Assembly: GCA_951406725.2 (NCBI GenBank)
Contig: OX597815.1
Coordinates: 159,154,001-159,218,000, forward strand
Direction: 5' to 3'
DNA from: Octopus vulgaris
Taxonomy: Eukaryota
DNA: 64,000 nt
Positions 8 to 5,704 of the stretch are shown one piece after another. Below the pieces are notes generated by a model that ran no database searches, was not told the DNA's origin, and was given only the letters and a program-made list of their open reading frames with translations. A program made the translations under genes and the position numbers. The first letter of the stretch is position 1. Every line of letters starts with the position of its first letter.

Positions 8-57
<50 letters not shown>

Positions 58-58
<1 letters not shown>

Positions 59-385
59 AAAAAAGGTTTGAAAATGCAATTTAAACGATGTTTATTTACT
101 TAACCGGTTTCACTCTTTGGTAAAAGATTGTCAAAAGTTACATTTAAGGAAACATTGAATAATATGGGTTCAAAAAAAGTTTTTTACATAATTGTCACAT
201 TGAATATTATGCATTCAAAAAAGTTTTTTACATAATTGTCACATTGGATATTATGAATTCAAAAATGTTTTTTTATACATAATTGTCACATTATTTGGGA
301 AAATTTGGCAGAAAAGGATAAAACAAATATATTATTGGGAATTGGTTGCGTTAATTATTGGTTGTCGCAAATTGTCACATTACAT
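58..385 (-). mobile_element. Short non-autonomous PLE-like element between (TA)n tracts, with a hammerhead-like motif and internal ~43-bp tandem repeats
   Basis: Minus strand 138-98 reads ACTT-TTGACAA-TCTTT(TACC)AAAGA-GT-GAAA-CCGG-TT-AAGT, followed by AATAAA. About three copies of TTTTTACATAATTGTCACATTG..TATTATG.ATTCAAAAA lie at ~155-295. TA runs flank both sides. Confidence 0.5.
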
Positions 386-649
386 GTATATATATACAAT
401 CTTTGGTATATATATACAGCGTTTTGACAGCAAAAATTAAAATGGCTTTTTTGTACATCTCAGAATATTTTAAGTATGTTTTTACTGACCTGTCAGTATT
501 AGCAGAAAGGCTGAACTGAGAGAACAGAAGAAGTAGCCAATGTGGTGTATACTTCCCCTTTATGCATGAATGATTTTGGGGTTATCAGGAGGTTAGTATG
601 CGGGTGTGAATAGATGTGTCCATGCCTGCTGGTCAGACAGCGTCTGTTT

Positions 650-870
650 GTCACACACATATATATACACACAAACACACACACACACAACAACACACAC
701 ACACACACACATAGTATACAAACACACACCACATACAAACAACACACACACACACAGAACACACACACCCACACACAACGCACCCACATATATCACATAT
801 ACACACAGCACACAAATATAACATGTATCTATATATAACATACACAGATATATAACACACATACACACAC

Positions 871-908
<38 letters not shown>

Positions 909-1692
909 TACATACATAATATAAATATCACACAAATACACCTAGCATATATATACACACATACAATACACACATACAGCATGTAAGTAATATATATACA
1001 CAATATATGCATGCAATATACATACGTAATACATACATATAATATATATATATATAGACAATGCATATACATATATACACATATACATATAAATAGTGTT
1101 TACATACACATACATAGATGTACCACATATACACACAACACACATACATACAATGCATACACATACACATACGCATACATATAATATATATATACACACA
1201 CACACACATAACATACATACACACACAATGCATACATATATATACACGCAATGCATATACATGTATTCATGCACATATAGCACACCTACAATATACATAT
1301 ATACAGTGCACACATATACACAAATATATACACTTAATTGTACACGTACATATACAATACACATACATACAATATACATATACACAATGCGCATGCAAAT
1401 AATGTACATGTTTATACACACATAAACATGCAAATAAATATACACACACACACATACACACACACACATATATATACACATATATATATATATATATACA
1501 CACATACATACATACATACATGCACATACATATATTTTTTCACACACATATATATATATAAAAAATTCACCACCCCCCACACACACAAATTACAAACCTA
1601 TAGCGTACACACTCAAATATATCTCTACATGCTGCACATACACACAAACAAAGTACTAACATATACACACATACCATGCATATACACACACA

Positions 1693-1735
<43 letters not shown>

Positions 1736-1962
1736 CAGATACATATGTAAATACATACACACGTACACAATGCTCACACACACACACACACACACATACA
1801 CACACACCCGCACACAGTGCACACACACACACACATATATACACACGTGCACACACACACACACATACAACGCGCGCACACACACATACACACACACACG
1901 CACACAGTGCACACACACACACACACACAACACTCACACACATACATCACCTACATATATAT
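650..1962. repeat. Compound (CA)n/(TA)n/(CATA)n microsatellite tract
   Basis: Directly visible; it explains the C/V/Y/H/T-rich pseudo-ORFs here. Confidence 0.97.
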
Positions 1963-2115
1963 AATGCATGCGTGTGCATGCCACGTATGTGTGCGGTCAA
2001 TGCCCGCTAGTGTGTCCTATGCGTGCCGATGCGCGCATGTGCCCGCCCGCACGATATGCTGTGAGCGTGCGCGCGTCCCTGTGTGCTTGCTCTGGATGTG
2101 CTTCCAGGGGGTATG

Positions 2116-2966
2116 TTAGAGTATGTTTAGTTGTGGTCTGTATTTTTGAATAAGATTACTTTCCTTATTTATTCGTGTTTGGTCTGTGGTGTTGTCCGAG
2201 CATTGGTATAGTGGGAAGACTAAGAATTTGGGGGACTTATTGTGTGCACAAAGGTCTAAGTGTCCACTTAGTGGTATCTGTCTTGTGGAGGGGTCCCTCA
2301 GTTGTTGTCGGTGAACTGTCATTCTGTCTCTGAGGGTAAGGCTCGTTTGCCCTATGTAGTCTTCGTGGCATCCTTCACACCTTATGACGTAGAGTAAATT
2401 TTTTGATGCGCACGTGAAGTTATTTTTTATGATGAATGTGTGTCCCGAGTGGAACTTGTACGACGATCCCTCAATGAGGTGGATGCAGGTCTTACAGTTG
2501 GGGCGACCACATTTTTTGATGGTGGGCGGTGGGTTTGTGTTGTGTAATTTTGCGTTGGTGAGGAGGTTTTTTAGGGATTTAGGTTGTCTCTTACTTTTTA
2601 TTATTTTATGAGCTGCCAGTATTTTTTTCAGGCGTGGGTCTTGATTTAGTTGTGGAATGTTGTTGTATATAATAGTGTAAGCTTCTGCATTCCTTGGGTT
2701 GTGTGTTGAGAGATAAGGAGGCTATTGACTGTACTGTGGATGTGTTTGGGTTTTCGAAGGTCTTGAATGTTGATTGATTTGGCCCGTTCTATTCCGTTGT
2801 CTACTAGTGATGCCGGGTAATGTCTTTCGAGAAGAATTGCCCTTAGTTCCCGGAGTCTTCAATAGTGCAGATTCTTCTCGCTAGGTTGAAGGGGATATTT
2901 GTCTTTGTGTGTTTTGGGTGATTGGAGGTGAATAGAAGGTATTGTTTAGAGTCAGTGGGTTTGTAA
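2116..2966 (-). pseudogene. PLE ORF2 thumb, Cys linker and GIY-YIG endonuclease, broken by about three frameshifts (~2966, ~2860, ~2720)
   Basis: Shifted frames read YKPTDSKQYLLFTSNHPKHTKTNIPFNLARRICTI, then RLRELRAILLERHYP, then an open frame 2718-2116 containing CGRPNCKTC, FTCASKNLLYVIRCEGCHEDYIGQT, DRMTVHR, GHL, KES and QLNIL*. Confidence 0.9.
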
Positions 2967-4403
2967 ATAGATGTCAGTTTCAATGTTGACGCCTTTTTTA
3001 ATGATTAGGATGTCAAGAAAAGGGAGTTGGTCCTGACTATATTCCATTGTGAATTGAATGTTGTTATTTACACTGTTGATAAGGTTTTTGAAGTCTATAA
3101 GTTGGTCGAGTGTGTGGGACCATAGGATGAGGCAATCATCTAAGTAGCGTTTCCAGTTCTCCAACAGGTATTTGTGGAAAGACTGGCCGTACTTATATTT
3201 GGATTTTTCATAGACATGTGATTCCAGGTAGGCCATCACCAGGTTTGCATAGGTAGGTGCAACTTTCGTACCCATTGCAGTCCCTGAGACCTGTCTGTAA
3301 GTGTTGTTGTGGAAATACATGAAGTTGTTTTGCAGAATAAATTTGAGGCCCTCAATTATGAATTCTTTTTTAATTCTTTCCGGGATCTCATTGGGATATT
3401 TATCCAGCCAGAATTTAATGGCTTCCAGTCCAAATTCATGTGGGATTGTGGTGTAAAGATTAATAACATCAAAAGAAACGATTAAGGTGTCTTTATCGGC
3501 ATGTTTGGGGAGATGGTTTAATAGGTCCAGGTCATCTCTTACAATACTTGGAATGTGTTTCAGTATTGGCTTTAAGATGATATCTATAAAGTTGCTAAGT
3601 CTGTGTGTTTCACAACTTGGGCCTGCCACTATTGGTCTCAGTTTGAGATCAGTGGGATGTGGTATAGTGATGCAGGTTGAAGTGGACTTTTTGCAAGCTT
3701 CTGTGATAATTTGACTCTTGTGTATTTTTGGAAGCCCATAGAGTGTGCTGGTTTTGCAATTAAATTTAGTAATGTAGTCGCATTCCTTTGCTGTCAAGTC
3801 ATTCCGGTGTTGGTAAATGAGTGCCTTCAGATTGGTCATTGTTTTGGATTGCTGGTAGTCGACTACTCTTTCGTAGTATGTGGTATCCTCTAAAAGGAGA
3901 GATACAGAGTTTTTATACTGCTCAGTATTCATAATAACGACCGTACTACCCTTATCAGCTTCCTTTATTGTGACGTCATGATTGTCTCGTAGCGTATGGA
4001 TGATTTCCCATTCTCTTTTACTGGTGTTGGGTTTGAGTTTAGGTTGTGGGAGTTCACCATAAGGGAAGTTGGAGATGTAATCGCAAAATTTGTCTAAGGT
4101 TTTGTTTTTGCCTTTTATGGGATTATAGTTGCTTTTGTTACAGACCATTGATTCGTCGTTATTATTAGTTTTTCTGTCAAAAAATTCCTCTGTGAGGCGT
4201 AATTTTCTGCAAAAGTGCCAGATGTCATCCTGTATTTCCCTCAGGTTAGGGTATTGCGGAGTTGGGGTGAATTTTAGTCCTCTTGAAAGGATTTTTATTT
4301 GTGGTGTCGACAGGTTTAGGTTAGAAAGATTCACTATTTTTGGTTTTTCGGGGTTGGTATCTACCATCTGGAGTCGTGGAAACTGATGCCCTTGCCTAAA
4401 AAA
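2952..4403 (-). CDS. PLE ORF2, reverse transcriptase part (ATG at 4367, or entered by -1 frameshift at 4403-4397)
   Basis: Motifs IVNLS..LSRGLKFTPTP, KEADKG, YGLPKIHK, LRPIVAG, SFDVINLYT, QVSGTAMGTKVAPTYANL, RYLDD, LPFLD. Confidence 0.93.
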   Translation of the reverse strand, partial: FFRQGHQFPRLQMVDTNPEKPKIVNLSNLNLSTPQIKILSRGLKFTPTPQYPNLREIQDDIWHFCRKLRLTEEFFDRKTNNNDESMVCNKSNYNPIKGKNKTLDKFCDYISNFPYGELPQPKLKPNTSKREWEIIHTLRDNHDVTIKEADKGSTVVIMNTEQYKNSVSLLLEDTTYYERVVDYQQSKTMTNLKALIYQHRNDLTAKECDYITKFNCKTSTLYGLPKIHKSQIITEACKKSTSTCITIPHPTDLKLRPIVAGPSCETHRLSNFIDIILKPILKHIPSIVRDDLDLLNHLPKHADKDTLIVSFDVINLYTTIPHEFGLEAIKFWLDKYPNEIPERIKKEFIIEGLKFILQNNFMYFHNNTYRQVSGTAMGTKVAPTYANLVMAYLESHVYEKSKYKYGQSFHKYLLENWKRYLDDCLILWSHTLDQLIDFKNLINSVNNNIQFTMEYSQDQLPFLDILIIKKGVNIETDIYLQTH

Positions 4404-5704
4404 GGAATCCTGGGGGTTCTTCTATTTGCGGTATTTTGCTGTATGTGATTCTGTCCCCCGTTGACATGTCTGTTGAAGAGGTTTTGGTTGTTGTGATTCT
4501 GTCCCCCGTTGCTATGTTGTCTGTTGAGGAGGTTTTGGTTGTTCCAGGGTCTGGGTTGTTGGTGTGGCCTCCTGGAAGAGTTTTGGTTATTCCAGGGTTT
4601 GGGTTGTTTGTCCTGGGTGTAATGTTGGTTCCTTAGAGTGGGTTGGAAACTATATTCATGGTTTAGGAGTGAATTCCTATATGTTGGGGGAGAACTCTGA
4701 GTTAGGAGCGGTTTGGGTTGGAATCTACAATCATAGTTCAGAGATGGGTTTCTAAGTGATGGGTAGGATCTCCGAATCTGGAACGGTTCTTGTGTGGGTT
4801 GGGGTCTACGTTGTCTGGTAAAGTTTTGTCGTGTGATGATGGGTGTCTCGGTTCTTTTGATGGGATTGTAGTGCTGTCTGTAAGTTCTGTTGTTGTTGTT
4901 GTCGATGTTAGGGGTGGTGTGTGTTCGGTGTTTTGTGGTTGGTTTTCTTTGTTTTTGGCGAGGGGTGTGAGTTGAAGTAGATATTTTAAAATATGGGTTG
5001 CTTGAAAGGTGTTCCTTTGTGAACTCTGTTTCATAATTGGTGAACCAGCTGTTTTTTTCCTTTCGCTGGAGGGATGTTATTTCTTCATCCTCGCAGTTTT
5101 TTCTCCAGAGTTTGGTGGTTTCATCAAGGAGTGCTCCTTCACAGTGTTTTGAGATTTCAATCTGCATTTCATTGTCAAGGGTCTTGGATTTTTCTTCACT
5201 GGTGTTGGCTCTGAGCCGCAATAGTTCTACTTCCGTTTTGAATTTTTCAAAAGCTAGTTTCTCCCTGAGGTTTTTTTGGTTTTCTGGTTCATTTTGGATG
5301 GGTTTTATTTGTAGTTTTCTGGGTAGGATGATAGGGGTGGAGTTGAGCCACTTTTCATAAATGTCAGCTTTGTTGTTATTTTTTATGAAATTCCAGAAGG
5401 CAAACTTACGCGCTTTGAGATTTTTACTCCAGGTGTGGTTAAGAGAGCTTTTAATTGAGAAGCAGTCTTTAGTTTGCTCCTGCTTTGGGAGCACTGCCGT
5501 CTCTATGGATTTCATTAGGTTTTGCAGTGTTGGGATGATGTCAGGGATTTGATTGGTTGTTTTGGCCTCCATGAGTCCATTTAGGTATAAGTGCGATTGT
5601 TCGACTTTGTTTATTATGGTTGAAAGTTTCGAGGAGATTTCTTGTAATTCTTTTAGGATATTTTGGTTCATCAAAGATTCTGCTTGTTGTGATTTGGGTG
5701 GCAT
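4361..5704 (-). CDS. PLE ORF1 (447 aa from MPPKSQQ): predicted coiled-coil/helical N-terminal half and basic, N/Q/R-rich disordered C-terminal half
   Basis: Uninterrupted ORF. The first 60 codons of the called ORF are microsatellite-derived and AAAATGC at 5704 is the plausible start. Peptide repeats QP(K/R)PWNNQN x2 and NNQNL.NR..NGGQNH x2. Confidence 0.8.
   Translation of the reverse strand: MPPKSQQAESLMNQNILKELQEISSKLSTIINKVEQSHLYLNGLMEAKTTNQIPDIIPTLQNLMKSIETAVLPKQEQTKDCFSIKSSLNHTWSKNLKARKFAFWNFIKNNNKADIYEKWLNSTPIILPRKLQIKPIQNEPENQKNLREKLAFEKFKTEVELLRLRANTSEEKSKTLDNEMQIEISKHCEGALLDETTKLWRKNCEDEEITSLQRKEKNSWFTNYETEFTKEHLSSNPYFKISTSTHTPRQKQRKPTTKHRTHTTPNIDNNNNRTYRQHYNPIKRTETPIITRQNFTRQRRPQPTQEPFQIRRSYPSLRNPSLNYDCRFQPKPLLTQSSPPTYRNSLLNHEYSFQPTLRNQHYTQDKQPKPWNNQNSSRRPHQQPRPWNNQNLLNRQHSNGGQNHNNQNLFNRHVNGGQNHIQQNTANRRTPRIPFLGKGISFHDSRW

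Follow-up and report, generated by a model that had tools for sequence, protein, structure and literature searches.

The window analysed here, 64,000 nucleotides of the Octopus vulgaris genome (assembly GCA_951406725.2, contig OX597815.1, positions 159,154,001 to 159,218,000), carries on its minus strand a Penelope-like element (PLE), a retrotransposon in which a separate open reading frame (ORF1) precedes the frame that encodes the reverse transcriptase (RT) together with an endonuclease (EN) of the GIY-YIG type. The junction between the two frames is predicted to be a site of programmed -1 ribosomal frameshifting, a reading to which we assign a probability of about 0.8 from the sequence of this element and its relatives. 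The in-phase slippery heptamer at the junction, the -1 arrangement of the two frames and the conservation of both are observed features of the DNA. In the window copy, the junction is made up as follows.

4361..5704, minus strand: ORF1, 447 amino acids (aa), from the ATG at 5704 to the TAG at 4363-4361, intact in the window copy
4403-4397, minus strand: slippery heptamer T TTT TTA (TTTTTTA), X XXY YYZ in ORF1 phase, the predicted -1 shift site
4364..4396, minus strand: spacer from the heptamer to the ORF1 stop, 33 nt or 11 codons, with no stable fold
4361..4363, minus strand: TAG stop codon of ORF1, a candidate ribosome roadblock as judged from its spacing
4365..4367, minus strand: ATG in the RT frame, one base 5' of the ORF1 stop, a candidate restart site for a side route in one subclade only
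4422..4424, minus strand: TAG bounding the RT frame upstream, 6 codons 5' of the heptamer

ORF1 of the window copy ends in PFLGKGISFHDSRW followed by its stop codon. The heptamer stands in the zero-frame X XXY YYZ phase of programmed -1 signals, and the -1 frame is open from it. Re-reading of coordinates and frames upheld the in-phase heptamer and the -1 relation of the RT-EN frame to ORF1, both of which an earlier sequence-only reading had proposed; its placement of the opening TAG about seven codons before the heptamer was off by one, the distance being six. On U UUU UUA, ribosomes would step back by a single base and thereby yield a rarer ORF1-RT-endonuclease fusion beside abundant ORF1 protein; we infer both the slip and the ratio of the two products.

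Relatives outside the O. vulgaris genome were fetched by RT alignment (86 loci), the ORF1 alignment being too divergent for a locus search. Among the matches listed, all nine outside loci with both an ORF1-profile match and a junction exhibit an in-phase T TTT TT[A/G] and a -1 overlap, and two endonuclease-bearing loci without an ORF1-profile match carry the same combination; the decayed copy L230 is short of one T. The DNA-level statistics refer to 16 families, six from O. vulgaris itself and ten from outside, with L180 (a near-copy of L179) and the endonuclease-less L200 dropped and L220 left out. All 16 have T TTT TT[A/G/T] in ORF1 phase with RT in the -1 frame, and the T run measures six except in one family, where it is seven. 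The heptamer is thus retained in phase among divergent relatives, a check that the sequence-only reading had itself put forward. Stops in the -1 frame are absent from the 263 codons between heptamer and ORF1 stop, as opposed to 74 in 960 codons upstream. Upstream of the junction, the 3591 codons available from nine elements contain a single in-phase run of six Ts (T6); the presence of such a run at 16 of 16 family junctions is therefore beyond chance.

The same pattern is seen in proteins, a set that partly overlaps with the DNA set (P0107 corresponds to L183). From 157 ORF1 homologues examined, 98 were judged to extend past the conserved domain and are treated as full-length, and 59 were dropped. 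F-L or F-F lies within the last 60 residues of 75 of the full-length homologues, and F-L does so in 55 of the 68 proteins of at least 330 aa, compared with 8-14 in upstream windows. K, Q, E, M and W are all absent from the position that precedes F[LF] (0/75, against a background of 20%), which fits a codon obliged to end in T, and the Phe of the heptamer is invariant in a 60-row alignment. Homologues of ORF1 form 448 clusters at E<=0.001, the best 150 of which do not exceed 609 aa, while the best 120 RT-EN relatives measure 478-803 aa; hence none of these is fused. Fused ORF1-RT proteins of 784-2235 aa were likewise absent from 535 candidates, which is weak evidence, and viral contigs that were searched gave no match. 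The named sources of the best 120 RT-EN relatives are gill symbionts of bivalves, which we read as host contamination; PLE sequences also occur in bacterial genome bins (L252-L258; proteins P0183, P0200, P0208 and P0245), where they probably represent contamination from animal hosts.

Within the O. vulgaris genome (2.8 gigabases in 227 contigs were searched, and 30 of 40 scored matches were fetched), the T run has six Ts in 28 of the fetched copies, five in two and seven (T7) in none, and an exact-pattern search of the whole genome recovered 55 T6 junctions and no T7. A T7 in most copies, which the sequence-only reading had regarded as fatal to its proposal, is therefore not found, and the 55 exact T6 copies rule out an assembly artefact at the junction. 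Five further families in this genome were found with divergent ORF1 proteins as queries. In one of the families, four copies (fam3; L153, L154, L299 and L300) have ORF1 and ORF2 fused into frames of 1199-1214 codons through a single added A within A runs close to the junction. These four copies have no common private variant and show no sign of being a fused sublineage; three of them had been fetched on account of their frame length.

Could the junction nevertheless be an artefact, or a mutation in a dead copy of what was originally a single ORF? The decayed ORF2 of the window copy and the description of canonical EN+ PLEs as single-ORF elements (PMC8557442) would fit this, but the identical junction recurs in 55 copies and in all six own and ten outside families, and we regard the idea as practically negligible. 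Polymerase slippage on the T run could add one U and fuse the frames already in the RNA, and the four fam3 copies demonstrate that a one-base insertion is able to do so. However, the T run is constant at six (seven in one family), and a run of six is short for polymerase slippage; no indel occurs at the T run among the rows listed (12 of 20 contig rows), the window family has none of the T7 DNA copies expected as the legacy of retrotransposed slipped RNA, and slippage would not demand codon phase. We consider it highly improbable, and hold the same view of the proposition that the T run and a following AG act as a 3' splice acceptor, a spliced RNA without ORF1 then encoding RT-EN. While TTTTTTAG is acceptor-like, AG follows the T run in 10 of 16 families, the next codon begins with G in 55 of 75 proteins and introns are known in PLEs (PMC8557442), the AG is absent in six families, in three of which the next AG is out of phase, and the bases 5' of the T run are mostly A-rich, with no pyrimidine tract. 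Moreover, contigs of X1, X5 and X12 cross the junction unspliced, and AG is the end point of no joint among the five listed; these are three probable-RNA runs from three studies, their RNA label being a guess and their contigs losing rare forms and being silent on level and strand. Termination at the ORF1 stop with a restart at the adjoining ATG, which would release a free RT-EN protein and had been offered by the sequence-only reading as stop-restart at ATGGTAG, draws on the position of the window ATG (4367-4365) one base before the ORF1 stop, on a TGG at that codon in nine of 12 rows of the window family's clade, and on the annotation of the closest RT relatives with a Met 9-11 residues ahead of xNLS, although these database starts may be GTG or TTG. 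As a general route it fails, since an ATG ahead of the xNLS motif is present in two and absent in 14 of the 16 families; the sister family fam2 has CTG at the site in most copies, and a restart needs neither an in-phase heptamer nor a stop-free -1 overlap. We judge it very improbable overall, and unlikely, if less so, as a side route in the subclade of the window family.

Programmed -1 frameshifting, the reading that we prefer, raises the issue of its stimulator, and here the distance between heptamer and ORF1 stop, overlooked in the sequence-only reading, offers a lead. Precisely 10 codons separate the heptamer from the stop in 25 of 75 proteins and in seven of 16 families, and the number is never smaller. 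Shuffles that keep the composition and the open RT frame would place 0.45 of 16 families at 10 codons (P ~1e-7), and the 10-codon floor has a joint P of 0.0006, both values treating the families as independent, though they are related. On the tree, the 10-codon label needs 11 changes, at least six of them forced, compared with a shuffled mean of 21. The ten spacer residues of the 25 ten-codon proteins are only 10% identical; it is therefore the length of the spacer that is kept, and not its sequence. With Escherichia coli reporters, the -1 slip of a trailing ribosome is stimulated when the ribosome ahead stands on a stop codon, and the effect is greatest at a spacer of 9 codons (PMC6815119); the minimal collision distance in yeast is a 10-codon gap, and human stop codons show an enrichment of disomes (bioRxiv 10.1101/2023.02.01.526718); a collision-stimulated shift has also been proposed for a natural +1 case, Salmonella ugtL (bioRxiv 10.1101/2024.09.11.612453). 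In its geometry, the PLE junction has the slippery site one ribosome length before a potential pause site, and since the 10-codon spacing equals the ribosome-collision distance, the terminating ribosome may be the stimulator. A ribosome would pause on the ORF1 stop 10-11 codons downstream and would hold the next one with UUU and UUA in the P and A sites at the attempt to translocate. We give this roadblock, deduced from the spacing, slightly less than even odds, and the wider proposition that in a widespread clade of two-ORF EN+ PLEs the terminating ribosome, not RNA structure, might drive programmed -1 frameshifting is more tentative still. A second peak at 20 codons (7/75) was considered as a possible two-ribosome queue and was not counted, five of the seven proteins coming from one subclade.

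The competing account takes the frameshift to be real, ascribes its stimulation to an RNA structure that is long-range or specific to the family, and attributes the stop spacing to inherited history; granted real frameshifting, we allow it a substantial share that nonetheless stays below one half. Structure signals are present in some long-spacer families (L173, z -3.5; L252, z -2.1), the pseudoknot score of L183 lies above 30 of 30 shuffles, the stop spacing is clustered on the tree, and a PLE frameshift has been paired with a pseudoknot in print (PMC8557442, Fig. 1 legend). Yet among the 11 families with spacers of 10-12 codons, z falls below -2 only in L176 and there in the 150-nt window only, and spacer length is kept over long branches while the sequence is randomised. 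The fold 3' of the heptamer in the window is no better than that of shuffles (z +1.1 to +1.7), in agreement with the remark of the sequence-only reading that only weak hairpins are visible, and no stem-loop or pseudoknot is common to the 16 families, as judged by a crude pseudoknot scan that spans 80 nt only. RNA structure is probably not what stimulates the slip. Several observations weigh against the terminating ribosome in this role and one against the frameshift itself. The tree groups ten-codon members together, so that the P values given above overstate independence; longer spacers of 11-41 codons, found in 50 of 75 proteins, need another account; the window family stands at 11 codons, not 10; and in its 12-row clade, codon 10 after the heptamer is TGG in nine rows and a stop in three, the TGG creating an NTG in the RT frame (ATG in the window family, CTG in most fam2 copies). 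Furthermore, termination pausing in mammalian cells is reported to trigger collisions only rarely (PMC13341110). As regards the frameshift, a terminal F[LF] is absent from 23 of the 98 full-length ORF1 homologues, a count made at the protein level only and including some that look like decayed copies.

The ORF1 protein is predicted to contain a long-helix domain (residues ~53-231), and its AlphaFold model has a confident all-helical region, with blocks 81-240 at pLDDT values of 94-98, and a low-confidence, N/Q/R-rich tail that finishes in F-L plus 11 residues. Pfam returned nothing above cutoff in ORF1 and Foldseek no match at E<=0.001; the best fold match (Z 8.7, root-mean-square deviation 6.5 over 119 residues) is generic for helical bundles. 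No Gag homology of ORF1 was found in these fold searches, which returned generic helical matches only, and the label gag-like refers to organisational logic, not to homology. Its position and basic tail suggest a packaging or RNA-binding role. The tail-coding DNA (window 4550-4440, minus strand; L034:3384-3433) carries imperfect copies of a 48-nt repeat, the number of which differs in frame from one subfamily to another.

The element extends from about 5757 to 51 in the window, with (TA)n on its flanks. Beyond the junction, it comprises the following parts.

2952..4421, minus strand: RT part of ORF2, in the -1 frame (Pfam RVT_1, 33.8 bits; cutoff 29.6)
2116..2721, minus strand: C-terminal part of ORF2, CX4CxxC linker and GIY-YIG endonuclease (Pfam GIY-YIG, 24 bits; cutoff 22.6)
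51..2115, minus strand: 3' untranslated region (UTR), mostly resembling a (TA)/(TG) microsatellite, with a degenerate hammerhead-like stretch at its end (~125-98)

By these motifs, the element is a two-ORF, endonuclease-bearing, Neptune-like Penelope-like retrotransposon, "Neptune-like" being meant by motifs and not by an RT tree. RT shares one frame with a C-terminal GIY-YIG domain, as in EN+ PLEs; the presence of GIY-YIG sets the element apart from the endonuclease-free Athena and Coprina, and two ORFs in a -1 relation, in 16 of 16 families, set it apart from canonical single-ORF EN+ PLEs. The CX4CxxC read in the translation agrees with the CX2-5CxxC linker ahead of GIY-YIG described as a Neptune feature that also occurs in Nematis and Naiad (PMC8557442). 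Intact ORF2 elsewhere is a single frame of 776-777 codons from RT through endonuclease in 10 of 12 longer loci. In the window copy, three indels that had escaped the sequence-only reading, at ~2967 (a 1-nt insertion), ~2860 (a 25-nt deletion) and ~2718, detach the endonuclease part from the RT with which it is continuous in intact copies, the first two truncating the RT part, and this copy is therefore unable to make an intact RT-EN. Apart from these indels it differs from copy L034 at only 13 of 3656 aligned bases, which marks it as young but disabled.

A tandem or pseudo-long terminal repeat (LTR) arrangement is present: the tandem unit of L040 measures 5.83 kb, and other copies are preceded upstream by partial 3' repeats. 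At L040:83-2123, immediately 5' of the tandem PLE, is a 680-codon frame that looks, by eye, LTR-retrotransposon pol-like. Just 5' of ORF1, the outside relatives L174 (L174:57) and L181 (L181:854) have a canonical hammerhead-like core, which is degenerate in three O. vulgaris families, with its stems apparently retained in two; degenerate sites lie at window 125-98 (minus strand), L040:2702, L073:632 and L166:4531. Rfam gave no hammerhead match in four loci, and returned only sub-threshold microRNA matches, on microsatellites. Some 1.4 kb of what looks like (TA)/(TG) microsatellite belongs to the 3' UTR of the element (window 2115-51, minus strand) and is spread with each full copy.

Endonuclease-less PLE-like loci have ORF1/RT overlaps of their own. 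These are very long in L216, L224, L225, L248 and L251 (186-209 codons), with A AAA AAC where they begin; L200, L240, L249 and L212 possess -1 overlaps with canonical heptamers (T TTT TTA, A AAA AAC, G GAT TTT and C CCT TTT). L200 and L240, one of them with a different heptamer, are also spaced at 10 codons, but the remaining 11 of these 13 distant loci are not.

A large group of EN+ PLEs is thus bicistronic, with what would be a gag-pol-like switch, in contrast to the single ORF described for canonical members. The ORF1 family of this group, with 448 clusters and no match to a Pfam family, lacks annotation. If the spacing has been read correctly, the terminating ribosome would be a third natural type of -1 stimulator beside RNA structure and bound protein, and the junction would be a natural, evolutionarily conserved case of collision-programmed recoding in eukaryotes that ties RT output to ribosome load and termination speed. 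It would also provide a simple 40-nt cassette for asking whether eukaryotic stop-codon collisions serve programmed recoding.

The novelty is partial, as a frameshifted PLE ORF1 is already in print: the legend of Fig. 1 in PMC8557442 states that in PLEs a frameshift with a pseudoknot can set ORF1 apart, and the legend of the corresponding preprint has Coprina organised like Athena. Our literature search, which covered titles and the starts of abstracts and not the Terminon (2017) and Athena (2007) papers, where slippery sites may be described, returned no paper on the present junction, nor one on a stop-spaced -1 site conserved in eukaryotes. The surprising part would be the structure-free, stop-spaced design, which we put forward with reserve. 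In the extracts available, PMC6431247 contrasts single-ORF EN+ with two-ORF EN-lacking PLEs, PMC12602865 reports a killifish Neptune with two non-overlapping ORFs and PMC5408684 esterase-bearing Neptune-like PLEs, the latter two making no frameshift claim there, and PMC3846280 mentions frameshifts as defects only. The main text of PMC3905857, on esterase-bearing PLEs, contains neither "Neptune" nor "frameshift", and "Penelope" is absent from 300,000 characters of PMC5009743.

Set beside known systems, the present clade comes close to Neptune-clade EN+ PLEs and departs from canonical EN+ PLEs, which are described as single-ORF (PMC8557442), in that a separate helical ORF1 of 400-480 aa precedes RT in a -1 relation. 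With the PLEs whose ORF1 is separated by a frameshift it shares a helical or coiled-coil ORF1 joined to RT by the frameshift, and it differs from them in its endonuclease, its (TA)n insertion and its lack of a conserved pseudoknot. Those elements of Fig. 1 we take to be Athena and Coprina. Collision systems (PMC6815119; ugtL) resemble it in having a slippery site about one ribosome length before a stop and in not needing structure; they come from bacteria, one being a synthetic -1 reporter and the other a single +1 gene, whereas the PLE junction would be a eukaryotic -1 case at 10 codons, as suggested by its spacing. The gag-pol frameshift site of HIV-1 (the human immunodeficiency virus of type 1) has a downstream stem-loop. 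The PLE has none, is a non-LTR element and shows no Gag homology in the searches made, but it shares with HIV-1, whose site is named as U_UUU_UUA (PMC5009743), the identical heptamer, its phase and the logic of a structural protein followed by an enzyme.

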